A stretch of DNA of 64,000 nucleotides from an uncultured Methanosarcinaceae archaeon (lineage in GTDB: Archaea > Halobacteriota > Methanosarcinia > Methanosarcinales > Methanosarcinaceae). The translations under genes were made by a program, and so were the position numbers. The notes under the pieces were generated by a model. That model searched no databases. It was not told the origin of the DNA and worked only from the letters and a program-made list of their open reading frames with translations. Every line of letters begins with the position of its first letter. The stretch's first letter is position 1. Shown here one piece after another: positions 9,063-39,012 of this stretch. The DNA is taken from NCBI GenBank assembly GCA_963847185.1, contig CAWJYV010000008.1, positions 320,001 to 384,000 of the forward strand, given 5' to 3'.

Positions 9063-10082
9063 TTGCACGGCAGTGGGGGGAGTGATTCATTCATGACGGC
9101 GAATGTCATAGAAGTAAATAATCTTGAGCACAGTTATGGCGATTTAAAAGCTGTAGATAATATCAGTTTCACCGTAAAGGAAGGGGAAATATTTTCATTT
9201 CTAGGTCCGAATGGAGCGGGTAAGAGTACTGTAATAAATATTCTCACTACACTTCGGAAAATCCAGAAAGGTGAGGCTAAAGTTAATGGTTATGATGTGG
9301 CAAAGGAATCAAAGCATGTAAGAAAATCAATAGGTATTGTTTTTCAGATGATGTGCCTTGATTATGAAATGACTGTATGTGAAAATCTTGAGTATCATGG
9401 AAAGATATACTCAATGCCAAAAGAAGAAAGAAGAAAAAGAATAAACGAACTTCTTAAATTAACTGAACTGGAAAGTAAAAGGAATACTCTTGCTAAAGAC
9501 TTAAGTGGGGGCATGAAACGAAGGCTTGAACTTGCAAGAGGATTAATGACAAAACCTGCAGTTCTTTTTCTTGATGAGCCGACGATAGGTTTTGATATCC
9601 AGACCAGATTAAGAATGTGGGAATATTTGAGGGAGATTAAGAGAGAAGGCACAACCATATTCATGACCACTCATTATATGGAGGAAGCCGATCAGCTCAG
9701 TGACAGGATCAGTATTATTGATCATGGGAAAATCATTGTAACCGGGAGTGCATTGGAGTTAAAAAATCAGCTTGGAAAAGACCTTCTTTATCTGGAAACT
9801 AGTGATAATAAAGCTGCTGCAGAAGTTTTGAAGACTATCGAATCGGTAACTGGAGTAACTGATGACTCTAAATCCCTAAGGATAATGCTTGGGATAGATG
9901 TCACACATGTACTACCGAAAATTATAGACAGTATCAGGCAAAAAGGGATAGAGATCATAACAGTAAATATCAAAAAACCTTCTATGGATGATGTTTTCGT
10001 TCATTATACAGGGCATGATTTAAGAGAAGGCGGAACACAGGAAAAGCATGAAGGAGACGAAATTATGGAGGCATTGAAATGA
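9063..10082 (+). CDS. ABC-2 type exporter ATP-binding subunit (DrrA-like)
   Basis: GPNGAGKS, LSGGMKRR, FLDEPT, TTHYMEEA; likely start at MTANV. Confidence 0.95.
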   Translation: MHGSGGSDSFMTANVIEVNNLEHSYGDLKAVDNISFTVKEGEIFSFLGPNGAGKSTVINILTTLRKIQKGEAKVNGYDVAKESKHVRKSIGIVFQMMCLDYEMTVCENLEYHGKIYSMPKEERRKRINELLKLTELESKRNTLAKDLSGGMKRRLELARGLMTKPAVLFLDEPTIGFDIQTRLRMWEYLREIKREGTTIFMTTHYMEEADQLSDRISIIDHGKIIVTGSALELKNQLGKDLLYLETSDNKAAAEVLKTIESVTGVTDDSKSLRIMLGIDVTHVLPKIIDSIRQKGIEIITVNIKKPSMDDVFVHYTGHDLREGGTQEKHEGDEIMEALK

Positions 10083-10915
10083 GCTTTGCGTTCCAAGCGA
10101 TATACTGGAGAGAAATGGTAAAGTTTTTTAGATTCAAATCCGTGCTCCTCAGTTCATTGATTCAGCCTGTGATGTGGCTGGCATTTTTTGGGCTTGCAAT
10201 GTCAGATAGTTTTGATAAATTAACTTCCATGATACCAAGCATTCCCGGTGTTCCAAACGTGGATTATCTTTCCTATATGGGTGCTGGAATAATTGCAATG
10301 GACGTGCTCTTTGCCAGCCTTTTTGGGGGTACTAATCTCTTATTTGATAAGAAATATAGTCTATTAAAAGAGACTATTGCAAGTCCTATCTCACGAGTTA
10401 ATATCATCCTAGGGGTTGGGCTTTCCGCTGTGACGAAATCTTTCATCCAGACGGCTATCATTATCGGATTTGGAGGACTGATTGGTATGAATTTCTTTAA
10501 GGGATACACTCCTGTTCAAACCCTTATATCAGTCGTGGGTATATTTGTACTGGTTGGAATTTTTACATTGGGATTCCTCTTCCTTTCAGGATCAATTGCT
10601 ATTACGGTTGATCAACCCGAAGGAATGCAGTCCATACTTACCTTTATTAGTATGCCATTATTTTTTGTGAGCAATGCACTTTATCCTGTCGATGGATTTC
10701 CTGAATTTATCAGGATCCTGTCGGTGTTTAATCCATTATCTCTCCTGGCAAACGGAGTTCGCTATTTCGCGTTAGGAACTAACTTCTCTGTAATGGGTAC
10801 CCATTACATTTATACGACAGCGGATATTGCCTTTTCATTTGTAGGACTAATAGTCTTTGCTCTCACAATGTTATCCGCCGTACTCTGGAGATTAAATAAA
10901 GTGAATATTTCTTAA
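10079..10915 (+). CDS. ABC-2 type exporter permease (DrrB-like)
   Basis: About six TM segments, NPLS motif, overlaps ATPase stop. Confidence 0.92.
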   Translation: MSFAFQAIYWREMVKFFRFKSVLLSSLIQPVMWLAFFGLAMSDSFDKLTSMIPSIPGVPNVDYLSYMGAGIIAMDVLFASLFGGTNLLFDKKYSLLKETIASPISRVNIILGVGLSAVTKSFIQTAIIIGFGGLIGMNFFKGYTPVQTLISVVGIFVLVGIFTLGFLFLSGSIAITVDQPEGMQSILTFISMPLFFVSNALYPVDGFPEFIRILSVFNPLSLLANGVRYFALGTNFSVMGTHYIYTTADIAFSFVGLIVFALTMLSAVLWRLNKVNIS

Positions 10916-11203
10916 TTTTCACTTTATTTTCTTCGGTCGTGGACATGAGTTATTGAAAACTGTAAGCATAAGAATCTCTCCATATTTCTCTCAAATACGG
11001 AAGACATACTCGCTTTTCGGAATTGATCAATAACCCGCGTACACAACCTTTTTTCTTAACTCCTGCTTTTATATGTCTTATTTCTGAAGATTACCTGCTT
11101 TACAGGTAGCTTTTTATTTAATATTTTATTTCTCTTTAGGTTCGATTTGTTTTCAGTTTGCTCATTACTAGTGATGATATTTTGATATTTAATTTTTAAA
11201 TAA

Positions 11204-11265
11204 ATTTATTCAGTCGGTTGCCCCGCTAGCTTGCTGTGGGATGCGCCAGCGCAACTTTGATTTTT
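11204..11265. repeat. Short GC-rich palindromic element resembling Methanosarcina IS-end/interspersed repeats
   Basis: ccccgctagcttgctgtggga-tgcgccagcgca hairpin-like island in AT-rich DNA; family assignment from memory only. Confidence 0.35.
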
Positions 11266-13229
11266 CAGAATATATTCTTCTAAGTGTTTCTAGAAGGTGG
11301 ATTTGCTGCATGGCTTAATAAAAACGAACTTTTTAAAAACTTTGGCTGCAATTGTATATTTTGAAAAAGTAACTTTTATTACTTTTCTGCATGCTGACTG
11401 AAAAAGACAATGCCAGTGTCATTGAACTTAAAGCCTCAACTCCTAAAGTCTATCATAAATATAAAGAAGCACATATCTCAGGAGCGATCTTTTGGAAATG
11501 CATCTCCACTTTGTAGTGATTAAAATAACAGGACTACCCTGTTTTAAATGGATATAGGCCGCTTCTGAGGTCATCTGCGCTGAATCTGAAGGCAATTCTG
11601 AAGGATAGTTTGAAGAATAGACCTTTTGCCTGAGACAAGCTCAATTGTACTGTTTATGCTATGAATCTAATTATTACAAGCTTTAAAGACACTCCATTGT
11701 GATCAGTTGATACTTTAAGGGACCTATATCCTTGCGCAGACCTAATGTCTGTTTATTTAAGTAATCCCATCTCTTTCGCATGTCTTTTTCTCCCTTTTCT
11801 GAGATCCATTATTATCTTGTCTCAAAGTCAAATTTCTTAAAAGAATATTATCACAGAACTTTGCCATATCTGGAATGCAAACTGGTTTTGACTATGAAAG
11901 GTGTTTATATGTAACTTTTATTAACCTAGCTGTAAGCACCTTTTTTAGATATGATATAAGTCAAGGTCATCTCTCATTATACGGTTGATGTTTTCATGGT
12001 TAATTTTCCGATGTAGAAATGCTTATATTTTGTGCATTAAAGCACGTCTACTATAACACACTGAATCATCTTACCAAACTGCAAAAAAGATATGATGCGA
12101 CACTAGGAGTGTTTTGGGATATAACATCAACCAACTAATAGTGCACGATCAAAGTCAATTATAACTCGAAATAAAGTGCAAAGCGCTTATATCCAGACTT
12201 ATTCTACTTCGCCATTAAAATAGTAATTTAAGGACTGAAATTACTTATGAAAATTATTACCTTCTATATTTTTACTGACACTCTACGTCAATTTTCTAAC
12301 ATATAATTTTCTTAATATATAACCTTATATATTCTCAAAAGCATCTGATTTCAGTGTTCTCTCTTTCTCGTTTTTAATATCTAATTATATCTAATAAAGT
12401 AAAGTTTATTCCTAAAGTACATAATATTATAGGGTTTACTAATGGCTCTCGGTGCGTTTTTATGGTGACGAAATATGGAGCCAAAAGTACAAGACTTTTA
12501 GATTTCGATTTTAAAGTTTCAAGCGTAAACATGATTAAGAAAAATAAATTTAAATAAAGATAAGAATTAATTGGAATGTTAAATTTGAAGGAAAAAAACT
12601 CTTCTCCATGATAGTTGGATTGCACATGATGGAGAAATCCCAGGATCTGCATTTGTTGGATGATTCGAGGTCTGATATTTCGTAAAAAAAAAGATACTTG
12701 CAAAATAAATATATGATCTTCTTTATCTATAATTCTAGGACTATTTTCTGCTTTTTTTAGTAAAATCATTCATTTTAGTACCTATAAATTAATTAAGCTG
12801 ATAGATTGAGTTTATTTTTTCCTTTTATCATTTAATTTTTCCTATTTTGCCAAAAAAAAGGTTAAAGACTTTCTTTTATATACAATTTAAAATAATTTCT
12901 GAAATATTTCTTTATTTTGGAAGTGCTTCCTCTTTTTCCCGATAAATAGTTCCTGATTTTCGGAACTATTTAGTGATAAGTAAAAATTATTCTATATGCT
13001 TTATATAAATTAAAGATATATGTTTATATATACTCATCTGCAAGGAAATATTTAGATATGTTAATCCAAAAAAGTAATACCTCATTGTAATATATTTTTG
13101 GATCTGAATTGTAGTGAGTATCGCATATTTGTGGGAATATAATACATTGGTATAGAAAACATATGTATATGTTTTCTCAAAGGTTGCGAAAAAGGAATAA
13201 TCAGAGATAAAACTTTAGGGAGGGATATA

Positions 13230-13322
13230 ATGTTTGCATATGATTTCTTTGTGAACTTTGCTTTGATTTCAGCATACAAAGCAACAGTCTGTGCACAGAT
13301 TACCCAAGTAATTGTCGGGTAA
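13230..13322 (+). CDS. Micropeptide family A1, 30 aa MFAYDFFVNFALISAYKATVCAQITQVIVG
   Basis: SD gggaggg upstream; paralog of the three following ORFs. Confidence 0.8.
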   Translation: MFAYDFFVNFALISAYKATVCAQITQVIVG

Positions 13323-13404
13323 ATTAGATGGATAATAAGGAATTCACTCTCGAAGGATTTCCATTGTATTGTAGTGAGAACTATATTGAAAGGGGGAAAA
13401 TCAA

Positions 13405-13497
13405 ATGTTTGCATACGATTTTTTTGTTAATGTGGCTCTGATTAAAGCATACAAAGCAAAAGTTTGTGCAGAGATTACCCAAGTAATTATCGGGTAA
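13405..13497 (+). CDS. Micropeptide family A2, 30 aa MFAYDFFVNVALIKAYKAKVCAEITQVIIG
   Basis: SD aggggg; synonymous and conservative changes versus A1. Confidence 0.8.
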   Translation: MFAYDFFVNVALIKAYKAKVCAEITQVIIG

Positions 13498-13577
13498 ATT
13501 GAGACAAATAATAAGGATTCATTCTAGAAGATTTTACCATATTAAAATAGAGAATATACTGAAAGGAGGAAAATTAA

Positions 13578-13679
13578 ATGTATTGGTTTTCACAGGACTT
13601 TTTTGTTAATCTGGCCCTAGTTGACGCATACAAAGCAAAAGTTTACGCAGGAATTACACAGGTAATCGTCGAATTATAA
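13578..13679 (+). CDS. Micropeptide family A3, 33 aa MYWFSQDFFVNLALVDAYKAKVYAGITQVIVEL
   Basis: SD aggagg; in-frame length variation relative to A1/A2/A4. Confidence 0.8.
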   Translation: MYWFSQDFFVNLALVDAYKAKVYAGITQVIVEL

Positions 13680-13714
13680 GATTCACGTAAATAAACTTAA
13701 AGGAGGAAAATCAA

Positions 13715-13807
13715 ATGTTTGCATATGATTTCTTTGTCAATATAGCCCTGGTTAAAGCATGCAAGGCACAAGTTTACGCAGGAATTACCCAGGTAATCAT
13801 CGGATAA
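13715..13807 (+). CDS. Micropeptide family A4, 30 aa MFAYDFFVNIALVKACKAQVYAGITQVIIG
   Basis: SD aggagg; followed by hairpin at 13836-13858. Confidence 0.8.
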   Translation: MFAYDFFVNIALVKACKAQVYAGITQVIIG

Positions 13808-13835
13808 ATTAAAAAATACAAAAAATTGAATTGAG

Positions 13836-13858
13836 AGTTGCCTGTTTTACATGCAACT
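13836..13858 (+). terminator. Hairpin agttgcctgttttacatgcaact followed by T-run
   Basis: Imperfect inverted repeat; related copies at 14090, 14329 and 16061. Confidence 0.5.
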
Positions 13859-13984
13859 TTTTGGGTCTATAAAACAGTTTCAGTGGTTGCCTCTTAAAGA
13901 TATAATGGACAATCTCCTGGATTCGTTTGTCTTTAATTGGCGACCAATTAATCTATAGAGTTATAAATAAATGGGGGAAAAGTA

Positions 13985-14077
13985 ATGATAGTTTTACCAT
14001 CAATAAATATAAACATGGCGTGGGTATTCGTAATTCTTTCCAAGAATATCGGCGTTTTCATAAATCAGAATATCTAA
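13985..14077 (+). CDS. Micropeptide family B1, 30 aa MIVLPSININMAWVFVILSKNIGVFINQNI
   Basis: SD ggggg; differs from B2 mostly at third codon positions. Confidence 0.75.
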   Translation: MIVLPSININMAWVFVILSKNIGVFINQNI

Positions 14078-14089
14078 TTTAAATTAAAA

Positions 14090-14112
14090 AGTTGCATGTT
14101 TTGCATGCAATT
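14090..14112 (+). terminator. Hairpin gttgcatgttttgcatgcaa after B1
   Basis: Inverted repeat just downstream of stop codon. Confidence 0.5.
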
Positions 14113-14227
14113 CTTAGGCCGTAGTAATCTAATAGATATTCTAGATATGGACAAATCTCTGGATTCATTTGTCTTTAACTGATGACCAATTAATCCATAC
14201 GTTTAGAAAGAAATGGAGGGAGAAATA

Positions 14228-14320
14228 ATGATAGTCTTACCATCAATAAATATAAACATGGCATGGGTATTCGTAATTCTTTCAAGGAATATCGGCGTTT
14301 TCATAAATCAAAGCATCTAA
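14228..14320 (+). CDS. Micropeptide family B2, 30 aa MIVLPSININMAWVFVILSRNIGVFINQSI
   Basis: SD ggaggg; GTT/GTC, GCG/GCA, TCC/TCA, CAG/CAA synonymous changes versus B1. Confidence 0.75.
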   Translation: MIVLPSININMAWVFVILSRNIGVFINQSI

Positions 14321-14328
14321 ATTTAATG

Positions 14329-14355
14329 AAAGTTGCATGTTTTGCATGCAACTTT
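14329..14355 (+). terminator. Hairpin aaagttgcatgttttgcatgcaacttt after B2
   Basis: 11 bp inverted repeat plus T-run. Confidence 0.55.
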
Positions 14356-15066
14356 TTAGGTCGTAGTAATCTCAATAGCCATATCTTCTAGTATAATGGA
14401 CAAATTCCCTGGATTCATTTATCTAGAGTTGATGGCTATAGATTCTCTATTTACTTTCATGGCTTAGTTTTTTATCTTTCTCTGCGTTCACTAGACTTTT
14501 ATTCAATTAGATACAATTTTAAGGCTGTTATTTTGTCCTCTGGCGTGTTTCAAGATTGTATCAATATAATATTGTACTCGTTAAATATAATGTCTAATGA
14601 AATACAAATAAGAAACTGACATTAAAATGCAGTTAGTTAATTCGTTTTTTTCTTTGCCTATTTGCTGGTCGAAATTTCTCTATTTAATCCTACTATTTAT
14701 ATATACATATTTGCAAAATTAATCATGTCATAGCAGATAACCAAAACGTAAAGTAATGAAAAAATATAATTTTACACTTGAATAGTCTTCTACTTAAAGG
14801 TGAATATCTAAATTGAAATAAATTCAAAAATAGAAATTCAGTATGAGTCAGAAAAGTACTTCTCAAAGTATCCAAAGTTAGTATTAATAGCTTAATTTCA
14901 AATCTTTTAATTATTGTGTGTTTAATTTTTATATTCGAAATATCTATTAATCGAGTTATTTGGATACCTGAGTAGTTGTCAAAAGTTACTTGTGTATATT
15001 TAGGCGTTTTGGCATTTTAATCCAATTTTGGTGATATAATTAACTTCTCAACAATTTATTCTATTC

Positions 15067-15174
15067 TTATAAATGTCTGAAATTCCTCAGAGAGTTTCCT
15101 CCGATTTGTATGAATTTTATGCGTATAATCTGGATCATAATATTAATCTTTGTGTAACTGAAGTAAAGGAACAT
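15067..15174 (-). CDS. Divergent family C-like micropeptide, 35 aa MFLYFSYTKINIMIQIIRIKFIQIGGNSLRNFRHL
   Basis: SD ggggag 8 nt upstream; ungapped alignment to family C (F5, Y7, K/R-F/Y-I-Q at 20-23). Confidence 0.55.
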   Translation of the reverse strand: MFLYFSYTKINIMIQIIRIKFIQIGGNSLRNFRHL

Positions 15175-16060
15175 ATAATCTTCTCCCCTTGTTTAATATA
15201 TCTCTTTTCATTTGTTTTAGTGCTTTCTTCTAATTGATAAATTGGATTTAAGATCCCCACATTATTTTTCTTTTTTTCACAATCGCTATTGCATCTCTAT
15301 TAGATCTTTTTAGTGATGTGTTAATCTTTTTAATCAACTCCTTATTAGATTACTACTCTTCGACATGTTTCTTGAAACTATGGTAAGTTCAAACTGCTAA
15401 ATTTATTTTGAATCAAATCATGGGCATCTTTTTCATTTGAGTCTGATAATTCTAATTGTCTAATCGAAGAGTTTCTATATACAGTTATATCATTAATTTA
15501 TATGTACTGTAGAGAACAATTACTCCTTACAATTTATAGTGTTTAAATATTTGAATACAGAATTCCTGCAGAGAAAAAAATTTTAAAATTTATTTTTTAA
15601 AAAATTAATAAATACATAGAATTTATATGTCTTTTTTGTTCTGCAATAATGTTAATTATGCGAAAATATTCGGGATGAAAAGTAAAGAATTAATGAAGAG
15701 AATCTTTATCTATAATCTAAAGTTAAATAAGAATATAAATTCGAAATATATAGGTGCAAGGGATAGCTCCCTCTATATTTTATGGAGTTATAAAAATTAC
15801 TTTAATTTATATTTCTCTAAGTAAAATTAATATTTTATAGGCTAACCAAGATATGTTCACTCTTTTCGAAGATATTTTAGTCTCGTCTTTTTATATAGTT
15901 CGCATCCCTGTCTAAATGTTGATAGTTTGTATATTCTTGAGGTTTATTTCATAGCCCAAAATCAGTGTGTTGAGAAGCAAACTTTTTAGTTTTTAAAATA
16001 AGTAATTCATTTAATATGTTTTTATTTATATATCTACATATTAATATATGTAGAAATTTA

Positions 16061-16085
16061 AAGTCGCCTGTTTTGCGGGCGACTT
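16061..16085 (-). terminator. Hairpin aagtcgcctgttttgcgggcgactt at the end of the minus-strand micropeptide array
   Basis: Variant of the 13836/14090/14329 hairpin with compensatory stem changes. Confidence 0.55.
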
Positions 16086-16182
16086 CTTAATTTCTATTGT
16101 TGCGCATTGTCTATGATTATGAGTTATGCCACAAGCTTATGACTTATTTTATTCTCTCATAAATCTCTCTCATCTTGAGGCT

Positions 16183-16260
16183 TTAATCGCACTGAATGTA
16201 TCTGAACCATGTCTTATCAAAGGTCTTACTTACACAAAGATATTCAAACAGGATGGACAT
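16183..16260 (-). CDS. Micropeptide family C, 25 aa MSILFEYLCVSKTFDKTWFRYIQCD
   Basis: SD ggagg; last of ten paralogs in transcription order. Confidence 0.82.
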   Translation of the reverse strand: MSILFEYLCVSKTFDKTWFRYIQCD

Positions 16261-16341
16261 TGAAACTTCCTCCATTATCTTTTTATCTGTTAGTCAGTTT
16301 TATTCATTAAGTTTCAATTAAATTTTAACCAGCTAATTTGG

Positions 16342-16419
16342 TTAAAATTCGAAGCAGAACTCTATACCAAGGCCTGCAACAGCTTTAAATAAGTTGGAAA
16401 GGTTAAATACAAATATCAT
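16342..16419 (-). CDS. Micropeptide family D, 25 aa MIFVFNLSNLFKAVAGLGIEFCFEF
   Basis: SD ggagtgggg; stop codon lies within an 11 bp hairpin arm. Confidence 0.78.
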   Translation of the reverse strand: MIFVFNLSNLFKAVAGLGIEFCFEF

Positions 16420-16464
16420 TTTATCCCCACTCCTTTTGGTTTTCTGGCGCTGAATTTGTGTATC

Positions 16465-16539
16465 TTAACACTGAATGTATCTGAACCACTCAAGGTTGTA
16501 AGTCTTACTAACACAGAGATATTCAAACAGGATGGACAT
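16465..16539 (-). CDS. Micropeptide family C, 24 aa MSILFEYLCVSKTYNLEWFRYIQC
   Basis: SD gaggga; paralog. Confidence 0.82.
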   Translation of the reverse strand: MSILFEYLCVSKTYNLEWFRYIQC

Positions 16540-16596
16540 TGGAACTCCCTCTACTCTTTATTTTACTTGCGAATTTAACAACTCAGTTTTTATATC

Positions 16597-16671
16597 TTAA
16601 CACTGAATGTATCTGAACCACTCGAGGTTGTAGGTCTTGCTAATGCACAGGTATTCAAACAGTATGGACAT
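16597..16671 (-). CDS. Micropeptide family C, 24 aa MSILFEYLCISKTYNLEWFRYIQC
   Basis: SD ggggga; many synonymous changes versus the neighbour. Confidence 0.82.
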   Translation of the reverse strand: MSILFEYLCISKTYNLEWFRYIQC

Positions 16672-16755
16672 TTAAATCTCCCCCATTCTTTTTATGTGTA
16701 TTTTAGTCAGTTTTTATTAATTAAGTTTCAATTAAATTTTAACCAGCTAATTTGG

Positions 16756-16833
16756 TTAAAATTCGAAGCAGAACTCTATACCAAGGCCTGCAACAGCTTT
16801 AAATAAGTTGGAAAGGTTAAATACAAATATCAT
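16756..16833 (-). CDS. Micropeptide family D, 25 aa MIFVFNLSNLFKAVAGLGIEFCFEF
   Basis: SD ggagtgga; 414 bp from previous D copy. Confidence 0.78.
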   Translation of the reverse strand: MIFVFNLSNLFKAVAGLGIEFCFEF

Positions 16834-16877
16834 TTTATCTCCACTCCCTTTTGGTTTTCTGTCATTTAATTTGTGTT

Positions 16878-16952
16878 TTAACACTGAATGTATCTGAACC
16901 ATGTCATGTTAAAGGTCTTACTAACACAGAGATATTCGAACAGTATGGACAT
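16878..16952 (-). CDS. Micropeptide family C, 24 aa MSILFEYLCVSKTFNMTWFRYIQC
   Basis: SD aaggga; paralog. Confidence 0.82.
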   Translation of the reverse strand: MSILFEYLCVSKTFNMTWFRYIQC

Positions 16953-17010
16953 TTCGATTCCCTTTACTCTTTATGTCGCTTGTGAACTCAACTGATTTAA
17001 TCTCGATCTC

Positions 17011-17085
17011 TTAACACTGAATGTATCTGAACCACTCGAGGTTGTAGGTCTTGCTAATGCACAGGTATTCAAACAGTATGGACAT
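17011..17085 (-). CDS. Micropeptide family C, 24 aa MSILFEYLCISKTYNLEWFRYIQC
   Basis: SD aggaga; 414 bp from the 16671 copy. Confidence 0.82.
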   Translation of the reverse strand: MSILFEYLCISKTYNLEWFRYIQC

Positions 17086-17169
17086 TTAAATCTCTCCTAC
17101 TCTTTTTATGTTTATTTCAGTAAGTTTTTATTCATTAAGTCTCAATTAAATTTTAACCAACTAATTTGG

Positions 17170-17247
17170 TTAAAATTCGAAGCAGAACTCTATACCAAGG
17201 CCTGCAACAGCTTTAAAGAAGTTGTTAAGGTTAAATACAAATATCAT
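17170..17247 (-). CDS. Micropeptide family D, 25 aa MIFVFNLNNFFKAVAGLGIEFCFEF
   Basis: SD ggagtgga; two substitutions versus the other D copies. Confidence 0.78.
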   Translation of the reverse strand: MIFVFNLNNFFKAVAGLGIEFCFEF

Positions 17248-17293
17248 TTTATCTCCACTCCCCTTTGGTTTTTTGTCATTTAATTTGAGTATC

Positions 17294-17368
17294 TTAACAC
17301 TGAATGTATCTGAACCATGTCATGTCAAAGGTCTTGCTAACACAGAGATATTCAAATAGTATGGACAT
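17294..17368 (-). CDS. Micropeptide family C, 24 aa MSILFEYLCVSKTFDMTWFRYIQC
   Basis: SD ggaggg; paralog. Confidence 0.82.
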   Translation of the reverse strand: MSILFEYLCVSKTFDMTWFRYIQC

Positions 17369-17412
17369 TTCAATTCCCTCCTCTCTTTATGTCGCTTACG
17401 AGTTCAACTAAG

Positions 17413-17537
17413 AGCCTATCCGAAAAATGTTGTGAGCTACTGTAACTTTTGAAAGTGACAATATACACAACTTCACTAGCACTCGATAATATGACTCGTA
17501 ACTTCTCGAGATGCATTAATGACTTTTCGGATAGGCT
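17413..17537. mobile_element. 125 bp MITE inserted between two family C genes
   Basis: Perfect 14 bp TIR agcctatccgaaaa / ttttcggataggct; absent from homologous spacers of the array. Confidence 0.75.
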
Positions 17538-17555
17538 TCATTCATTTCCCGCAGT

Positions 17556-17633
17556 TTAGCAGCACTGAATGTATCTGAACCATGTCATGTTAAAGGTCTT
17601 GCTAACACAGAGATATTCGAACAGTATGGACAT
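17556..17633 (-). CDS. Micropeptide family C, 25 aa MSILFEYLCVSKTFNMTWFRYIQCC
   Basis: SD ggaggg; extra in-frame TGC codon. Confidence 0.82.
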   Translation of the reverse strand: MSILFEYLCVSKTFNMTWFRYIQCC

Positions 17634-17691
17634 TTCAATTCCCTCCACTCTTTATTTTACTTGCTAATTCAACTAACTCAATTTTTAGATC

Positions 17692-17766
17692 TTAGCACTG
17701 AATGTATCTGAACCATGTCATGTTAAAGGTCTTGCTAACACAGAGATATTCGAACAGTATGGACAT
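17692..17766 (-). CDS. Micropeptide family C, 24 aa MSILFEYLCVSKTFNMTWFRYIQC
   Basis: SD ggaggg; part of identical 133 bp tandem units. Confidence 0.82.
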   Translation of the reverse strand: MSILFEYLCVSKTFNMTWFRYIQC

Positions 17767-17824
17767 TTCAATTCCCTCCACTCTTTATTTTACTTGCTAA
17801 TTCAACTAACTCAATTTTTAGATC

Positions 17825-17899
17825 TTAGCACTGAATGTATCTGAACCATGTCATGTTAAAGGTCTTGCTAACACAGAGATATTCGAACAGTATGGACAT
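17825..17899 (-). CDS. Micropeptide family C, 24 aa MSILFEYLCVSKTFNMTWFRYIQC
   Basis: SD ggaggg; part of identical 133 bp tandem units. Confidence 0.82.
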   Translation of the reverse strand: MSILFEYLCVSKTFNMTWFRYIQC

Positions 17900-17957
17900 T
17901 TCAATTCCCTCCACTCTTTATTTTACTTGCTAATTCAACTAACTCAATTTTTAGATC

Positions 17958-18035
17958 TTAGCAGCACTGAATGTATCTGAACCATGTCATGTTAAAGGTC
18001 TTGCTAACACAGAGATATTCGAACAGTATGGACAT
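17958..18035 (-). CDS. Micropeptide family C, 25 aa MSILFEYLCVSKTFNMTWFRYIQCC
   Basis: SD ggaggg; first C copy in transcription order. Confidence 0.82.
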   Translation of the reverse strand: MSILFEYLCVSKTFNMTWFRYIQCC

Positions 18036-18118
18036 TTCAATTCCCTCCACTCTTTTACTTTCTCTTTGCTTAATTTTGCCGTCAATTTAGACTGGATTCT
18101 AATCTAAACCATTTTTAG

Positions 18119-18190
18119 TTATTTGAAGTAGATTTGTACACCAAGGCCTGCAAATGCATTAAAGAAGTTTTTAATATTAACGAATAGCAT
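18119..18190 (-). CDS. Divergent family D micropeptide, 23 aa MLFVNIKNFFNAFAGLGVQIYFK
   Basis: SD gggaggg; shares NFF.A.AGLG core with family D; first gene of the minus-strand array. Confidence 0.75.
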   Translation of the reverse strand: MLFVNIKNFFNAFAGLGVQIYFK

Positions 18191-19970
18191 TTTCTCCCTC
18201 CCCATTTTGCATTTTTCCATGCTTATACATTCTCTTTTTCTATCCTTTTTGTATATTTTCAATAGAAAATACACTTATCAGGAATATTTGTACGAGGCTT
18301 TTTCTTAATCCCCTCGGTCGTTAATACCACTCTGGCAAATATCTTTTTATTATTAGGCGTTAATCTTTCGTTTTGGCCTCAAAAAGCCTAACTTTTGCTC
18401 GCCAGTGAGTGTATCTAACTATCTATACTAAATTATATAAGCCCTATAGAACTAATAATTCTTATAAATAATAGTCTTTGAACTTTTTAGAATATTTATC
18501 TAAGATAAATAATATATATTTATATAAAATTTTCATTTATTTCTACTATTCATAATTTGAATACGTCGTTGACTTCCATTATACAAGGATAAAGATAAAT
18601 TATCCTATTAATTAATCAATATTAAAGTTTAATATTAAATATCATACTTAGATTCTATTTTTTCTTTTATTATCTTTTTTTGTCCATATCAAATACTTTT
18701 TACAGGATATTTACTTATCTCGAGTTACTTCTTTGTCCAACAGATTTCTAAATTTTTTGCCAATATTTTGCGAATTTTGGTTTTTTCTTTACTATTTTCT
18801 TTCCAATTAAATATCTTAGAGTGATAATTTTAGATAGTGAATATATCGCTAAAATATCAGTTTACTTTCTATGGGTAGGTTATGAATAAATCCCTGTTTT
18901 GTTCTACCAAACTATTTTGATAAAATATATTGCCTTATGTCATGAAAAGTGTCTCTTATTTTTGATTCTCGGTACTCAGTAGTATTTTTATCCAAGTTAC
19001 TTTTCTTCTCTTTAATCTCTTTATCTTTTATTTTTGCTGTTGAAAAACCATATGTTTTTTGTCAGGAATACTTTCATAGGTGCCCTTTCTTCAGATGGAT
19101 TTTAAAAAAGAATCTTGCAGGGAGTTCAGTAACTCAAAAACTTTGACTTAAAAACAGTAAAAAAGGGAACTCTTCTCCTCTTTCTAAACACTTGGGTAAA
19201 AGCATAATACTTATTTTACAGATCGAAAGTAGTTGCCATTACAGATCTCTAATTTATTTTCTTTTTTCTTACAAAAAGGAATTTATTTGGTGGGGAATTT
19301 CTCCAAAAAGGCAGTGTAGCGAAAGTTCTGTAAAATCACAAATCTCAAGAAGTTCCTTGGACGAAAATACCGTTTCAGAAGAATCTAATTTCATATTGTG
19401 AGAAAAAATTGACTTCATATTTACAGCAAATTTGCGACACTGCTTTTGATATTTCAGGTCATATAATAGTGTGTTCTTAAATTTATTCATCCTATAAAAT
19501 ATAAGTCAATATATATCATTTTCCTAACACGAATGTGTCTACATTACTAACCAGCAAAAAAGAAAAAAATATAATCAGTAATCGAAAATTAATGAAAATT
19601 AATTCATAGACGTTTATTCATTAGATATTAAGAAAGATAACAGTTTAAGTTGGTTCTCTCATTTGATGAATTGTTACTAATATAATTCTTAAAAATTAAG
19701 CTTTATTTCGTTCTATTAATCTTTTTTAGCGTTATCATGATCCTTTTTTTTATATAATGTAATTTTTATGTGTTTTTTGATTAAATGAGCTTCAATTATG
19801 CATTTATCGAGTAAATAAACATCTAAATTCTTTAGTTTATACTCATATTTCGGATAACTCTTTAAAAAAATTTAGAGAGAATAGGTTAAAATGGATTTTC
19901 TTACAATAAGAAGAAGTAAAGAGAATTGAGATTATCCTTATAATTTTTTTCTCATTATATCTCAGTTACT

Positions 19971-20690
19971 TTGGGGGGGAATATGGATATAATCAACGAC
20001 AGTTTACCTGAGGGTGGATTTCCTATTGTCGAACTTTCCAACGTCAGGAAGAGTTATTTACTTGGAAATCTGGAAGTTCCGGTTCTCTCGGATATTAACC
20101 TTAAAATAGGTGTGGGAGAGTTTCTCGCTATTATGGGTCCATCGGGCTCAGGGAAAAGTACACTTATGAACCTTATAGGTTGCCTTGACCGACCTACTGA
20201 AGGTCAGGTGCTTATAAGAGGAAGCGATCTCCAGAGAATGTCAGACAAAGAACTTGCCCGCTTAAGGGGGCTTGAAATAGGTTTTGTTTTTCAGAATTTT
20301 AATCTGGTTCCGCGCCTGACGGCTCTTGAGAACGTCTTGCTCCCTACTTTTGCAAATTCGAGAATTAGTACTGATCCAGTAAAGCGTGCAAAAGAGCTCC
20401 TTGAAACTATGGGGCTGCAGGATCGTATGCACCATAGGCCAGGGGAACTTTCAGGAGGCCAGGCTCAAAGAGTCTCAATAGCAAGGGCGCTTATTAATGA
20501 CCCTGCTATTCTTCTTGCGGATGAACCGACCGGAAATCTTGACTCCAGGACCGGAGCTGAGATTCTTAGAATACTTATGAATCTGAATACCGAAGGAAGA
20601 ACGATAATAATAGTTACACACGACTCTGAAATTGCTAAGTATGCTGATCGAGTCGTTCTGGTGAAGGATGGAATAATCCAGTTTAATTAA
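19971..20690 (+). CDS. ABC transporter ATP-binding protein (LolD/MacB/SalX type)
   Basis: GPSGSGKS, LSGGQAQR, LLADEPTGNLD, VTHD; likely start ATG 19983. Confidence 0.95.
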   Translation: MGGNMDIINDSLPEGGFPIVELSNVRKSYLLGNLEVPVLSDINLKIGVGEFLAIMGPSGSGKSTLMNLIGCLDRPTEGQVLIRGSDLQRMSDKELARLRGLEIGFVFQNFNLVPRLTALENVLLPTFANSRISTDPVKRAKELLETMGLQDRMHHRPGELSGGQAQRVSIARALINDPAILLADEPTGNLDSRTGAEILRILMNLNTEGRTIIIVTHDSEIAKYADRVVLVKDGIIQFN

Positions 20691-20702
20691 AGGTGGGATC
20701 AT

Positions 20703-21950
20703 ATGGAAATAGTTAAAAAGAATGTTGTTGCTTTTTTTTCTTTACTTTTGGTTTTCTCTTCACTTGCAATTCCTGCTTCTGCAGATGTTGGAAGTGCAAG
20801 CCTTAAAATTACAATAATCGAAACAAATCCCTATCCTGCAAAGATAGGGGAATACTTAAACCTTACATTACAGGTGGAAAATGTTGGGCAGGATAAAGCT
20901 GGTAATGTTGACATAGAAGTTATTCCTAAGTATCCTTTCTCTCTTGATCCTGGGATGAATCCCATTCAAAACGTTGGGGCACTCAACCCAGGCAGGACTG
21001 CAACGAAAGAATTCTATCTTTTTGTGGACAAAAACGCTCAGAAAGGAATCCGCTCCCTTGACATCCGGGCAAGAGCCGATAAAGGCAGTCCATGGAGCGA
21101 GAAAAGCTTTGATATAAGGGTCGGTACTCAAACATATAATAGTAAAGGTACAGTTGAACTTGAGAATGTTGTTTCGAACCCAGATATTTTCATGCCTGGA
21201 GATCGGGGCACTGTTACAGTAACTCTCAAGAATACCGCAACCACTCCGACTGTCACCATTGATGAGAGTAGTTATGATACCAATGCCAGAATTCAGTCAG
21301 CCGTTTTAGAGCCATTATCTGATGAGATAATCGTACTTGATTCTCCATATGAAGAAATGGGTATTATAGGGCCTGGAGATAGTATCAAATTAACTTTCAA
21401 CGTTAGGGTTGCAGAGAATGCCATGGATGGGAATCACAACCTTGAATTAGCAATAGAGGGCAATTCTTTCGATTACAATAGCAAAAAGAATATTCCTCTT
21501 AAGGTCGACTCTTCAAATATAAAGGTGATCCCTTCAAAAGCACTTCAGCTTGTCAATGGACAATCTACAATCGAATTTGATGTGGCAAATACCCATCCTA
21601 ACGAGCTTAACTCAGTAAGCATAAAACCTGAAGCTGAGGGTGTGAAATTTTATCCTGCAGAATATTTCATAGGGCCAATGGATCCGGATGAGCTTTTTAC
21701 TGTCGAATTTGATGCTGTAAAAGATAATTCTTCGGGTTTCACGGAAGATTCAGGTAAAATAAACATGAGCCTTACTGCAAATTATAACAATGGAATTAAC
21801 AGGCACGCAAATGTCATCGGGAATCTTAATCTTGCAGACGATTCCGAATCCTCCGAATCAAATTCAACATCCGTAATAGCAGGTGGACTTGTTATTATTT
21901 CTGTTCCTGCGGCCTTTCTGTATTACAGAAGAAAAAAAGCAGCGAGATAA
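20703..21950 (+). CDS. COG1361-like cell-surface protein (signal peptide, Ig-like domains, C-terminal TM anchor)
   Basis: N-terminal signal peptide, C-terminal hydrophobic helix plus RRKK; lies inside the ABC operon. Confidence 0.85.
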   Translation: MEIVKKNVVAFFSLLLVFSSLAIPASADVGSASLKITIIETNPYPAKIGEYLNLTLQVENVGQDKAGNVDIEVIPKYPFSLDPGMNPIQNVGALNPGRTATKEFYLFVDKNAQKGIRSLDIRARADKGSPWSEKSFDIRVGTQTYNSKGTVELENVVSNPDIFMPGDRGTVTVTLKNTATTPTVTIDESSYDTNARIQSAVLEPLSDEIIVLDSPYEEMGIIGPGDSIKLTFNVRVAENAMDGNHNLELAIEGNSFDYNSKKNIPLKVDSSNIKVIPSKALQLVNGQSTIEFDVANTHPNELNSVSIKPEAEGVKFYPAEYFIGPMDPDELFTVEFDAVKDNSSGFTEDSGKINMSLTANYNNGINRHANVIGNLNLADDSESSESNSTSVIAGGLVIISVPAAFLYYRRKKAAR

Positions 21951-21981
21951 ATTAACTGATATCATATTTGTGGGGTAAAAT

Positions 21982-23193
21982 ATGATCAGATTTGCGCAGG
22001 CAACTCGAATTGCTTTGGGGAGTATAGGAAGTGCTAAGCTTAGGTCATCACTTACTACACTTGGAATAGTGATTGGCATAGCTGCAGTAGTTGTTAATGC
22101 ATCTCTTGGTGCCAGTTTCAATCAGTTTTTTACTAATGAAATTTCTTCTGTTGGCTCAAACTTTATTATCACGTACAGCAATCAACCCAATATTTTCTTC
22201 GACAACGAGTACAATTTAATGAAAAGTACCCAGGGGATTACCGGTGTGTCTCCCAGAAAATCGATGACTGGAGAGCTAACCTATCTTTCGGAAACTAATA
22301 CCGTAAACATTGCAGGGGTTAATGAGGATTTTCAGGAAATTCAGGGCTTAAAGATGGAAAGAGGCAGTTTCCTGACAAATAAGGATATTAACTCTGCAGT
22401 TTTAGGGTACAACCTGGCAAATGATGAGTTTAGCAGGGATATATCTCACAGAAGCACCGTGGAAATTGCTTTTCGACAAGAAAACGGTACCGTTGTAACG
22501 AAGACATTTAAGGTAAAAGGGATTCTGCAAAATTCCAAGCCAACTGTTATTAGTGAAGATAGCGATTATGATTTGACCGTCTTTATCCCAATTTCTACTA
22601 TGAATGAAATGATAGGAGAAGAGGATTATGGAACTTTTCTTGCAATGACGGATAGTCCTGATAAAGTCCGTAATGTCGCAGAAAAAGTGGATGATAGATT
22701 AGCACGGAATTTTGGGATCTCAGAAAGGGTTGATGATGAAGATTCAAAACCTTATACTGTTTTTAATCAGGCAGATGTGCTTGAGGAAACTGGGAAATTG
22801 GGCGATTCATTAAGCTCTTTCCTTCTGGTCCTTGCCTCAATTTCACTTTTTGTTGGCTCCATAGGGATTATGAACATTATGCTTGTAACAGTTACGGAAC
22901 GTACAAGAGAAATTGGTATAATGAAATCTGTGGGATACAGCAACTCTAATATCCTCTCTCTTTTCCTGCTGGAGTCTATAATGGTCAGTTTCCTTGGAGG
23001 AGTTGTAGGTACAACTATTGGGGGTTTAGGGGCCTATATCCTTGAAAGTGCTCTTAAACTTCCTCCAGTATTTCCTTTTAAATTGATTGAAATAGGGGTG
23101 ATAGTTTCGATTCTTGTGGGGGTAACTGCTGGTTTGTATCCTGCAAAAAAGGCAGCTCATATGAATCCTGTAGATGCTTTAAGGTACGAGTGA
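21982..23193 (+). CDS. MacB/FtsX-like ABC permease
   Basis: LRSxLTxLGIxIG, GIMNIMLVTVTERTREIG, PVDALRYE motifs. Confidence 0.95.
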   Translation: MIRFAQATRIALGSIGSAKLRSSLTTLGIVIGIAAVVVNASLGASFNQFFTNEISSVGSNFIITYSNQPNIFFDNEYNLMKSTQGITGVSPRKSMTGELTYLSETNTVNIAGVNEDFQEIQGLKMERGSFLTNKDINSAVLGYNLANDEFSRDISHRSTVEIAFRQENGTVVTKTFKVKGILQNSKPTVISEDSDYDLTVFIPISTMNEMIGEEDYGTFLAMTDSPDKVRNVAEKVDDRLARNFGISERVDDEDSKPYTVFNQADVLEETGKLGDSLSSFLLVLASISLFVGSIGIMNIMLVTVTERTREIGIMKSVGYSNSNILSLFLLESIMVSFLGGVVGTTIGGLGAYILESALKLPPVFPFKLIEIGVIVSILVGVTAGLYPAKKAAHMNPVDALRYE

Positions 23194-23660: not shown

Positions 23661-24572
23661 ATGAAAAACAATAGAGGGGTAGACATGGAAATTAAAATGG
23701 CCACTGACAAAGCATCTGCTCCCGGCAATTCTGCTCCCAAAACAGAAACCGATTCGATACCTGAGGGGAAAATGGCTCATAATGAAAGCCAATTTGTCTC
23801 AAACGAAGATTCAAGTGATGAGCCCTTTAAATATGAATTATACCGCACAAAAAATCTGCATAGAAGGATGGAGGGAAGGGATAAAACAAGAGCTTCGGTT
23901 ATTGAAGTTATCAATGTCAAAAAAAGTTATTTCCTTGGAGATACGGAAGTTCCGATTCTTCGAGATATTAACTTAGAAGTGTTTGAAGGGGAATTTCTTG
24001 CTATCATGGGTCCTTCTGGCTCTGGAAAGAGTACATTAATGAATCTCATTGGTTTTCTTGACAGGCCTACAGAAGGTAAAATTATGATTAAAGGCCTCGA
24101 TGTCAATAAGCTGTCTGATAAGGAAGTTGCTAGACTCAGGGGATTGGAAATAGGTTTCGTGTTCCAGATTTTCAACCTAATCCCACGGCTTACCGCTCTT
24201 GAAAATGTTGAGTTGCCTACTTATGCAAATGTGAGAAATGGGGTTGATGTTCGCAAAAGGGCAAAGGAGCTTCTAGAACAGGTTGGCCTGGATGACCGTA
24301 TGCATCATAAGCCAGGTGAGCTTTCAGGTGGACAATCTCAAAGGGTTGCAATCGCCCGAGCTCTAATTAATGATCCTGCAATTCTTCTTGCGGACGAACC
24401 CACAGGAAATCTTGACTCAAAAACAGGATGTGAAATCCTGAACATGTTCACAAAACTCAACGAAGATGGCAGAACCATTGTAATGATTACCCACGATCCA
24501 GAAATTGCAAAATATGCAGACAGAATAGTGCTCGTAAAAGATGGAATCATTCAGAATAATCCCAATAGTTAA
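23661..24572 (+). CDS. ABC transporter ATP-binding protein (LolD/MacB type) with N-terminal extension
   Basis: Close paralog of 19971-20690; start uncertain. Confidence 0.9.
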   Translation: MKNNRGVDMEIKMATDKASAPGNSAPKTETDSIPEGKMAHNESQFVSNEDSSDEPFKYELYRTKNLHRRMEGRDKTRASVIEVINVKKSYFLGDTEVPILRDINLEVFEGEFLAIMGPSGSGKSTLMNLIGFLDRPTEGKIMIKGLDVNKLSDKEVARLRGLEIGFVFQIFNLIPRLTALENVELPTYANVRNGVDVRKRAKELLEQVGLDDRMHHKPGELSGGQSQRVAIARALINDPAILLADEPTGNLDSKTGCEILNMFTKLNEDGRTIVMITHDPEIAKYADRIVLVKDGIIQNNPNS

Positions 24573-24608
24573 GTTTCAAAATTTTAAGCTAATCAGGGTG
24601 AACCCAGA

Positions 24609-25865
24609 ATGACAAAAATGAAAAACCGAATTATTCCTTTTGTGCTGTCTTTGCTTTTAGTTTCCTCCATTTTTGCAGTTCCTACTTCTGCAGCTGTTGG
24701 AAGTTCAAGCCTTAAAGTCACAATAGTCGAAACAAATCCCTATCCTGCAAAGATCGGAGAATACCTGAACCTTACGCTTCAGGTAGAAAATATTGGAGGG
24801 GACAGGGCTGACAATGTTGACATAGAAATCGTTCCTAAATATCCTTTCTCTCTTGACTCAGGGATAGACCCTGTCCAGAACATCGGAGCTCTCAATCCAG
24901 GCAGGACTGCAACAAAAGAATTCTACCTTTTCGTGGACAAAAACACTCAGAAAGGAATCCGCTCCCTTGATATCCGAACAAGAGCTGATAAAAGCAGTCC
25001 ATGGAGCGAAAAAAGCTTTGATATAAGGATTGGTACTGAAACGTTTGACAGCAAAGGTACAGCTGAACTTCAAGAAGTTGTTTCCAATCCCGATGTTTTC
25101 ATGCCCGGAGACCGGGGGACTGTTACAGTAACTCTCAAGAATACCGCAGCTAATCCGACTGTCACCATTGATGGGAGCGACTATGATACCAATGCCAGAA
25201 TTCAATCAGCTGTTTTAAAGCCTCTATCTGATGGGATAACTGTTCTAGATTCCCCTTATGAAGAGATGGGTCTACTGGGGCCTGGAGATAGTATCAAATT
25301 AACTTTCAACGTTAGAGTTGCAGATGATTCCATGGATGGAACTCACAATCTTGAACTTTTAATAGAGGGAAACTCTTTCGATTACAATAGCAAAAAGAAT
25401 ATTCCTCTCAAGGTCGATTCTTCAAATGTAAAGGTGATACCCTCAAAGACACTTCAACTTGTCAATGGGAAATCTACAATCGAATTTGATGTGGCAAATA
25501 CCCATCCTAACGAGCTTAGCTCAGTAAGCATAAAACCTGAAGCAGATGGAGTGAAATTTTATCCTGCAGAATATTTCATAGGGCCAATGGATCCGGATGA
25601 GCTTTTTACAATTGAATTTGATGCTGTGGCAGATAACTCCTCAGATGCAGATTTGGATTCCTCTAAGCCTATAAACCTGACGCTTTCTGCAAGTTACAGT
25701 AATGGAATCAATAAACATGAAAATACTGTAAGCAATATGTATATTCAAGATATTGAGGAAAATCAGGGAGGAAGTTCTGGTATAATTATTGCAGGCCTGC
25801 TAACTGCTGTCTTTGTTGCTGCAGGTATATTGATTTACAAAAAGAGAATTAAAAACAAAAAATAA
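24609..25865 (+). CDS. COG1361-like cell-surface protein
   Basis: Close paralog of 20703-21950. Confidence 0.85.
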   Translation: MTKMKNRIIPFVLSLLLVSSIFAVPTSAAVGSSSLKVTIVETNPYPAKIGEYLNLTLQVENIGGDRADNVDIEIVPKYPFSLDSGIDPVQNIGALNPGRTATKEFYLFVDKNTQKGIRSLDIRTRADKSSPWSEKSFDIRIGTETFDSKGTAELQEVVSNPDVFMPGDRGTVTVTLKNTAANPTVTIDGSDYDTNARIQSAVLKPLSDGITVLDSPYEEMGLLGPGDSIKLTFNVRVADDSMDGTHNLELLIEGNSFDYNSKKNIPLKVDSSNVKVIPSKTLQLVNGKSTIEFDVANTHPNELSSVSIKPEADGVKFYPAEYFIGPMDPDELFTIEFDAVADNSSDADLDSSKPINLTLSASYSNGINKHENTVSNMYIQDIEENQGGSSGIIIAGLLTAVFVAAGILIYKKRIKNKK

Positions 25866-38666: not shown

Positions 38667-39012
38667 ATATACTCCCCTAACTTTTCTTATTTCGTCGGAT
38701 GTTTTTTAATTTAGCCGTTGAGGTTTTATGTATTCAATATTTTGAAAATAACATATAAATAAATAGAGCAATTTATTCGTTTATATTTATATTTAATTCG
38801 AAATAAATTACGCGTTAATTGCTTTTTAAAAATTACTCTCGAAATTTTTGTTATACCTTATATGGTAAATTTTATTAAAAAAGATGTTTGCTAGGCCTAT
38901 TTCTTTCCTTTTGTCAGGCAGCCTGAGCCTTTTAAAATCCTTTGCTAAAAATAGATATCGGGAGAAATATGGTGAAGATATCTTTATATAGTACAAGTGT
39001 CTTTGTATAGTC

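Follow-up and report, generated by a model that had tools for sequence, protein, structure and literature searches.

A putative lineage-restricted family of small, predicted-helical hydrophobic peptides encoded in tandem by Methanosarcina

We analysed 64,000 nucleotides of DNA from an uncultured Methanosarcinaceae archaeon (assembly GCA_963847185.1, contig CAWJYV010000008.1, forward strand, positions 320,001 to 384,000). This whole stretch is called the window. Our subject is family A, four plus-strand open reading frames (ORFs) that lie head to tail between positions 13230 and 13807. Sequence comparisons indicate a new, lineage-restricted family of small, predicted-helical hydrophobic peptides, encoded as a tandem array in a mini-peptide gene island. 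We consider it highly likely that the ORFs encode proteins. An earlier note, made from the DNA letters, had described four tandem paralogs of 30–33 amino acids (aa) with a common consensus. The ORF list and protein alignment bear this out; the paralogs are 30, 30, 33 and 30 aa long and lie at precisely the coordinates given earlier. At the protein level, A2–A4 are 70–83% identical to A1. The 19 invariant columns among the four peptides give D-F-F-V-N-x-A-L-x-x-A-x-K-A-x-V-x-A-x-I-T-Q-V-I. A3 is longer at both ends, in frame each time. A 6-nt insertion after the start codon adds two residues at the N-terminus, which the note had recognised as longer, and 3 nt add one residue at the C-terminus. 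A repeat finder independently recovered the four copies as a 136-nt repeat family (its label D4; 63–79% identity), and a four-copy repeat is far above chance level. The units are 131–179 nt long, with spacers of 35–82 nt between ORFs. All four ATGs have a Shine-Dalgarno (SD)-like motif (GGGAGGG, GGGGG or GGAGG) 5–8 nt upstream, in keeping with the proposal that each ORF has its own ribosome-binding site. The array is laid out as follows, where L001 denotes the closest related locus.

13230-13322, plus strand: A1, gene for a 30-aa peptide; alignment, frame and substitution tests; orthologue in L001; product identical to library protein P0001
13405-13497, plus strand: A2, gene for a 30-aa peptide; alignment, frame and substitution tests
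13578-13679, plus strand: A3, gene for a 33-aa peptide; alignment; two in-frame indels
13715-13807, plus strand: A4, gene for a 30-aa peptide; alignment, frame and substitution tests
13218-13224, plus strand: SD-like site of A1, GGGAGGG, 5 nt from the ATG; equivalent site in nine of nine copies
13392-13396, plus strand: SD of A2, GGGGG, 8 nt from the ATG
13565-13569, plus strand: SD of A3, GGAGG
13702-13706, plus strand: SD of A4, GGAGG

Coding tests pooled nine family A copies, four from the window and five from L001. All frames were tested on these nine copies because one antisense frame shares wobble positions with the plus-strand frame. The plus-strand frame is open in all nine, and every other frame is open in at most three. 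An SD motif stands 5–8 nt ahead of the ATG in each copy. The pooled ratio of non-synonymous to synonymous differences per site (pN/pS) is 0.30 in the plus-strand frame; the other five frames give 0.40, 0.72, 0.90, 1.21 and 1.35. Pairwise ratios of substitution rates (dN/dS, NG86 method) among A1–A4 are 0.11–0.40, with one pair saturated. Both measures agree with the protein-level selection that had been suggested. Variable columns among A1–A4 number 9, 6 and 17 at codon positions 1, 2 and 3, respectively. Between A1 and its L001 orthologue, L1, there are five synonymous and four non-synonymous changes (pN/pS 0.23). Fisher tests of single pairs gave p = 0.0001–0.023 in four of five cases (A3–A4, p = 0.18). 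Both A3 indels (6 nt and 3 nt) are multiples of three. For the window copies, mean pairwise identity falls from 78% in the ORF to 59% in the SD-containing 20 nt and 34% just upstream of these; it is 40% just after the stop codon. Covariation was absent from an RNAalifold consensus fold of eight units (term +0.19), and a conserved RNA structure of the repeat unit was rejected on that ground. A search of positions 10900–20000 found no Rfam match at E ≤ 1.

The opposite strand carries one overlapping frame.

13082-13414, minus strand: 110-aa ORF, apparently an antisense shadow and not a gene; wobble positions shared with A1

The wobble-sharing antisense frame is open in just three of nine copies, and the equivalent ORF in L001 is reduced to 84 aa. 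The openness of the plus-strand frame, the SD sites, the substitution pattern and the lack of covariation therefore point to protein-coding genes under purifying selection, of which the 110-aa ORF is a shadow, as the earlier note had held.

The window is a piece of Methanosarcina chromosome, with an archaeal signal recognition particle (SRP) RNA gene (39012–39326, 211 bits) and one tRNA-Ser. Using the gene for an ABC-2 permease, a component of an ATP-binding cassette (ABC) system (10079–10915), as query we recovered 23 loci at 75–98% protein identity, all from Methanosarcina or Methanosarcinales. In the closest, L001, flanking genes share ~95% DNA identity with the window, and the intergenic and array stretch 84%. 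Five family A ORFs occupy the same position in L001, and downstream of them come the hairpin and the next peptide family, as in the window. Neither tblastn nor a profile search of every six-frame segment found a family A relative in the other 22 loci; two of these loci, L013 and L021, end too early to be judged. The six-frame profile search returned nine matches at E ≤ 1e-20, and the next best had E = 1.2. Of the 23 syntenic Methanosarcina loci, family A was found in one.

Searched with a profile, 1.84 billion representative proteins yielded five matches. Three are real and form three clusters: A1 itself (P0001), the L001 type and a third 30-aa variant, P0003. The other two matches were rejected as repeats in unrelated long proteins. 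The count of three clusters is a lower bound because gene finders often skip ORFs of ~30 residues. A scan of genome contigs with patterns from the peptide alignment produced 145 matches and confirmed none, the patterns being too strict for the L001 variants.

Copy number differs between the two arrays, with four in the window and five in L001. A1 has a positional orthologue, L1 (12952–13044 of L001; 90% nucleotide identity, support 0.999). A2–A4 are only 78–81% alike; L2–L5 are 91–100% identical to one another, and L3 equals L4. The pairing of A1 with L1, the near-identity of L2–L5 and the divergence of A2–A4 therefore indicate an array that turns over by duplication and loss while retaining the reading frame and SD site. 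The orthology of A1 and the divergence of A2–A4 also fit the older duplication proposed before. Taken at the level of sequence, family A appears to be a genuine small protein family restricted to one Methanosarcina lineage.

Comparison with known families gave no relatives. Pfam had no match at E ≤ 0.01, and at E ≤ 10 a single chance match for one of six peptides (Importin_rep_5, E = 0.093). None of nine peptides matched NCBIfam at E ≤ 1, and PADLOC returned nothing. Chance matches alone were seen in PHROGs (two, E = 0.24 and 0.3) and in a sequence search of the PDB (E = 1.1 and 2.9). ESM Atlas held no usable match for family A. In the Pfam and NCBIfam searches there was no homology to any toxin or bacteriocin model. 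Kinship with family D, a neighbouring peptide family described below, was ruled out by a profile-profile probability of 0.25%, from family D rows that lacked the initial Met. Family A thus appears to belong to no known family.

Signals flanking the array are consistent with a single transcript, as the earlier note had proposed.

13000-13007, plus strand: candidate archaeal TATA box 1, an exact match to TTTATATA; surrounding 50 nt conserved in L001
13023-13030, plus strand: candidate archaeal TATA box 2, an exact match to TTTATATA; conserved in L001
13833-13862, plus strand: terminator-like hairpin after A4, ending in a T5 run; -11.1 kcal/mol, z = -2.5; conserved in L001

A TATA-like element had been noticed near 13023 and a hairpin near 13836. 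Both were located by our analysis, together with the second box. The TTTATATA motif has 18 matches in the whole window against 5.9 expected. None lies between 13031 and 14695 on either strand, and thus none is inside the array. Promoter use of the boxes upstream of A1 is plausible, and with box 2, transcription would start near 13052 and leave ~180 nt as the 5′ leader. The hairpin after A4 was matched in folding by 3 of 200 shuffles; comparable hairpins stand behind the ABC-2 permease gene and behind each family B unit. Family A is probably read as one polycistronic message of ~0.8 kb, from the TATA boxes near 13000–13030, across spacers of 35–82 nt, to the hairpin at 13833–13862.

Three further observations concern transcription. 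A T7 run (13419–13425) falls within codons 5–7 of A2 and a T6 run (13599–13604) within the Asp-Phe-Phe-Val codons of A3. The run in A2, too, is within the Asp-Phe-Phe-Val codons. In A1, A4 and all five L001 copies, TTC breaks the run. T runs are able to terminate archaeal transcription, and these might cause internal attenuation of the array. The long spacers (80–83 nt; 13335–13385 in the window, and in L001) share a core of the form …GGAAT…ATTCC…TTGTAGTGAGAAC…, with an echo upstream of A1 at 13108–13120. This core might function in RNA processing or regulation. Finally, exactly 29 nt separate TTTATATA from the first base of the archaeal SRP RNA gene downstream of it (within 38983–39326), and this serves as a local calibration of promoter geometry.

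AlphaFold2, run with a nine-row alignment, predicts a single helix spanning residues 2–29, with a mean predicted local distance difference test score (pLDDT) of 84.1 and a predicted template modelling score (pTM) of 0.40. The grand average of hydropathy (GRAVY) is 0.71–1.19, and the four window peptides have net charges of +0, +1, -1 and +1. The hydrophobic moment (muH) at 100 degrees is 0.07–0.17 (shuffle p = 0.32–0.81). The best 18-residue windows gave p = 0.59–0.96 in all nine sequences and are not amphipathic. An amphipathic helix like that of phenol-soluble modulins (PSMs) was ruled out by these hydrophobic-moment tests. A beta-periodic moment (170 degrees) is likewise absent (p = 0.26–0.72). 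Polar positions 5, 9, 19, 23 and 26 fall within one narrow helical sector (0–40 degrees; mean hydrophobicity 0.02–0.05), and sectors centred on 100–160 degrees average 0.6–0.9. Lys17 lies outside the polar sector, and the invariant polar residues D/N5, N9, K17 and Q26 are partly along the narrow stripe. The 14 invariant columns in nine sequences are spread from residue 1 to 28, with no division into leader and core. Cys occurs at position 16 or 21 in three of four window copies; no Cys column is invariant. The C-terminal I-T-Q-V-I-V/I is rich in beta-branched residues, and ~20% of family A residues are aromatic.

In membranes, association between hydrophobic helices is driven by Asn, Gln and Asp residues within them. 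Hence, family A peptides are reasonably likely, on these predictions, to be membrane-associated helices, and would be expected to self-associate there. A predicted complex of four A1 copies (nine-row alignment) scored 0.02 against a mark of 0.42, in a run without controls, and weighs neither way on oligomerisation.

The array sits within a ~9-kb AT-rich stretch that runs from the end of the ABC-2 permease gene at 10915 to the start of a MacB-type ATPase gene at 19971. G+C content is 27–34% in this island and about 34–49%, mostly 36–42%, in the rest of the window. ORFs of at least 90 aa are limited to two minus-strand frames, the shadow at 13082–13414 and a frame at 12374–12769 that has no Pfam match. 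The island holds 21 SD-led mini-ORFs in five families. These, and the flanking ABC genes, are listed here.

13230-13807, plus strand: family A, 4 copies, 30–33 aa
13985-14077 and 14228-14320, plus strand: family B, 2 copies, 30 aa, 93% identical, with SD sites
16183-18035, minus strand: family C, 10 copies, 24–25 aa, aromatic and Cys-containing, in ~133-nt units, 83–100% identical
16342-16419, 16756-16833, 17170-17247 and 18119-18190, minus strand: family D, four Phe-rich peptides of 23–25 aa interleaved with family C
15067-15174, minus strand: family E, 1 copy, 35 aa, with SD site
9063-10915: ABC-2 ATPase and permease, 2.3 kb upstream of the array
19971-23193: MacB-type ATPase, CARDB protein and FtsX permease, 6.2 kb downstream of the array

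Each family B unit is followed by a hairpin with a T-run (14090–14112 and 14328–14356), and L001 has one family B copy (13888–13980) ahead of that contig's end. L018, L019, L022 and L023 carry a minus-strand cassette of families C, D and E at the corresponding position. In these four loci, diverged family C relatives (25–32 aa, up to 44% aromatic, with Cys-rich tails) form arrays of three or four copies, and one 28–29-aa family D relative heads the cassette. Family E relatives of 35–41 aa occur in L012, L013, L018, L019, L022 and L023, making this the most widely conserved mini-ORF of the island. A MacB ATPase/CARDB/FtsX module follows in all loci that have the cassette or family E and sufficient flank (L012, L018, L019, L022 and L023). 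In eleven loci whose 10-kb flank is complete, both the C/D/E cassette and the MacB module are absent. The evidence for a functional link of families C, D and E with the module is weak because a single insertion or deletion event could explain the co-occurrence.

Two non-coding blocks in the island, 15467–15563 and 18403–18494, are 76–84% conserved in four or five other Methanosarcina loci. On the minus strand, the second block is a short distance downstream of TTTATATA at 18521–18528 and may represent a conserved 5′ leader of the D/C family message. Two MacB-type modules (ATPase, CARDB surface protein and FtsX permease) are present in the window, at 19971–23193 and at 23661–25865 plus 27940–29154. 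In the second module the permease is split from its partners by an opposite-strand MEDS-HisKA sensor kinase gene (26150–27502). A flavoprotein gene (29386–30141) and an adenylosuccinate lyase gene (34168–35526) lie 4 kb from each other, and genes for an ABC ATPase and PcrB intervene. Flavoprotein and adenylosuccinate lyase genes are the flanks named for the Methanosarcina mazei spRNA09/10-asRNA60/61 pairs in the accessible text of a preprint (10.1101/2025.10.28.685009). A tRNA-Ser(GCT) gene at 39468–39554 follows the SRP RNA gene. The remainder of the window is ordinary chromosome, with parts of glutamate synthase, glnA, TspO, adenylosuccinate lyase, McrC-associated marker genes and FEN1.

Our favoured explanation for family A is tentative. 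We infer a chain that leads from a single transcript, through membrane location, oligomerisation and export, to a biological role. Four head-to-tail cistrons on one message would each be initiated independently from a strong SD of their own. The products would be leaderless, essentially uncharged, strongly hydrophobic single α-helices of ~30 residues. These would partition into the cytoplasmic membrane and self-associate there via the polar stripe. The tandem, multi-copy layout would serve abundant peptide production, and the flanking ABC systems would export the peptides or protect the producer. The peptides would act in membrane-active competition or in a toxin-like way, a functional analogue of leaderless multi-peptide bacteriocins. 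The turnover of family A, as judged from two arrays, would be typical of conflict loci. Taken alone, a secreted or toxin-like role is conceivable but doubtful.

Several findings weigh against this explanation. The peptides are neither amphipathic nor cationic, and so lack the physical traits that mark known leaderless bacteriocins and PSMs. The best 19-residue Kyte-Doolittle mean is 1.04–1.35, under the usual transmembrane cut-off of 1.6, and an invariant Lys (Lys17) sits mid-helix. For the whole peptide, the hydrophobic moment is not above that of shuffles (p = 0.26–0.81). Short hydrophobic peptides also tend to be modelled as helices by AlphaFold. Within A2 and A3, the T7 and T6 runs could end transcription early. 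The ABC-2 pair is 2.3 kb away, behind its own terminator-like hairpin, and is not dedicated to family A because it is present in 23 of 23 loci, 22 of which lack the family. The MacB module is 6.2 kb from the array; its co-occurrence concerns families C, D and E, not family A, and could reflect one insertion or deletion. No gene near the array was assignable as an immunity gene or regulator.

The main rival is that the peptides are small membrane proteins that stay in the cell, unexported, and modulate a membrane complex or a stress response. Leaderless, neutral peptides predicted to form one hydrophobic helix would suit such a role, as would the weak link to ABC transporters. Small proteins of M. 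mazei are described as acting in this way; in the available accounts, the Mtr complex is the target of MtrR and MtrI, and sP24 becomes inserted in membranes. Conversely, a small protein with a regulatory role is usually encoded by a single gene copy and conserved throughout a genus; family A has four or five copies, fast turnover and a presence in 1 of 23 loci. The array also adjoins four other multi-copy mini-peptide families, one with ten copies. Furthermore, six motifs representing families A, C, D and E in the window and in related loci (B was not searched) are absent from the supplementary tables of the M. mazei ribosome profiling (Ribo-seq) study, in the ten files consulted (PMC11456600). 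We therefore judge this rival unlikely, though to be taken seriously, and the other rivals are less likely than it. Tandemly duplicated units akin to type I toxin-antitoxin systems, with a hydrophobic toxin checked by antisense or structured RNA, are improbable. Small, hydrophobic, tandem peptides with fast turnover would be expected, the implied 5′ leader is long, and a hairpin in the predicted consensus fold pairs the SD with codons 5–7. In bacteria, type I loci in tandem are also known, Ldr and Ibs among them. Nevertheless, that hairpin is rich in G-U pairs and lacks covariation, and no toxin model has homology. GRAVY is 0.71–1.19, but the best 19-residue Kyte-Doolittle mean (1.04–1.35) is under the usual transmembrane threshold and Lys17 is invariant. 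Individual promoters for toxin and antitoxin would find little space because units of 131–179 nt, with 35–82-nt spacers, are short and no TTTATATA occurs inside the array on either strand.

Structural material of the envelope or extracellular space, such as self-assembling amyloid-like or surfactant-like peptides in an aggregate matrix, was an idea raised by the earlier note. The multi-copy layout suggests bulk production, and the beta-branched C-terminus and aromatic content could suit assembly. The sole structure prediction is nevertheless a helix, with no beta-periodic moment and no secretion signal, and we regard this idea as distinctly improbable. Ribosomally synthesised and post-translationally modified peptide (RiPP) precursors, processed by an enzyme encoded elsewhere, would fit the Cys at position 16 or 21 in most window copies. 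Tandem precursor copies are common in RiPP clusters. The chance of this is very small, however; conservation extends along the whole peptide with no leader/core split, no Cys column is invariant, and no maturase-type gene was found in the 9-kb island or among 39 larger ORFs scanned in the window. Just as remote is a repeated non-coding element or minus-strand gene beside which the plus-strand ORFs are incidental. AT-rich DNA holds many chance ORFs, an invariant 6-bp hairpin (ATTAC/GTAAT) falls on the ITQVI codons, and the pooled pN/pS of the wobble-sharing antisense frame (0.40) is near that of the coding frame (0.30). The plus-strand frame is open in nine of nine copies, however, against three of nine for the antisense frame, with an SD at fixed spacing in all nine. 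In-frame indels and the absence of covariation or an Rfam match point the same way.

The locus is compact and tractable: its four short peptides are within reach of chemical synthesis, and a close relative supplies a natural variant in copy number. The adjoining arrays, families C, D and E, are conserved in several Methanosarcina species. Were the peptides membrane-active, family A would show how such molecules act on archaeal ether lipids, and could also be relevant to how members of methane-producing communities compete and aggregate. Should they instead be internal regulators, the array would be an unusual case of amplified, fast-diverging micro-proteins. A broader and quite unlikely proposal, offered as speculation, is that family A is one module of a hypervariable Methanosarcina "mini-peptide island". 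At least five unrelated families of leaderless, hydrophobic, aromatic-rich peptides of 23–41 aa, tandem-amplified to 21 genes between two ABC systems, would form the first methanogen counterpart of multi-peptide bacteriocin and modulin systems. They would be unmodified ribosomal weapons or surfactants for competition or aggregate life. Unlike every bacterial example, the island peptides would be neutral and non-amphipathic, perhaps tuned to ether-lipid membranes.

Archaeal small proteins are largely uncharted, and we know of no peptide-based antagonism or surfactant system from methanogens. Our full-text literature searches turned up no account of archaeal arrays of tandem mini-peptide genes. 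A preprint on archaeal bacteriocin homologues reports homology-based matches only, and its main text, as far as consulted, contains neither "leaderless" nor "tandem" (10.64898/2026.07.27.741052).

The nearest parallels are bacterial. Leaderless class II bacteriocins of the aureocin A70 and garvicin KS type comprise three or four related, cationic, leaderless peptides of ~30 aa. Their genes lie head to tail with individual ribosome-binding sites, and the locus also includes ABC genes. Family A is alike in its tandem, related, leaderless ~30-aa genes with their own SDs and ABC genes nearby. It differs in being uncharged and non-amphipathic, in its archaeal host and in the lack of sequence similarity. 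Its ABC genes are kilobases away and not array-specific. Staphylococcal PSMs include the psm-alpha operon and are served by the ABC-2-type exporter Pmt; an amphipathic helix is their defining feature. Again there is likeness, in the four tandem mini-genes, the unprocessed predicted helices and the ABC-2-type transporter nearby. However, the hydrophobic moment of family A is not above that of shuffles and there is no homology. Membership of either group was rejected on testing cationic charge and amphipathicity. Because these defining properties are lacking, family A would at most work like the bacteriocin or psm-alpha systems and is a member of neither.

Type I toxins in tandem repeats are represented in enterobacteria by Ldr and Ibs/Sib, as set out in the portions consulted of PMC2887945. 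Family A resembles them in its small, hydrophobic, duplicated and lineage-restricted units. It differs in that the units are too short for sense and antisense promoters and look polycistronic, and in lacking homology. Small membrane proteins with antisense partners do occur in Methanosarcina, according to the accessible text of 10.1101/2025.10.28.685009. In PMC11456600, the words "paralog", "tandem" and "copies" each have zero occurrences in the text available, and arrays of tandem or paralogous genes are described in no passage. The M. mazei small proteins known from Ribo-seq and peptidomics nonetheless come from the same genus as family A, and the available parts of both sources describe a similar size class with some members inserted in membranes (PMC11456600; 10.1101/2025.10.28.685009).

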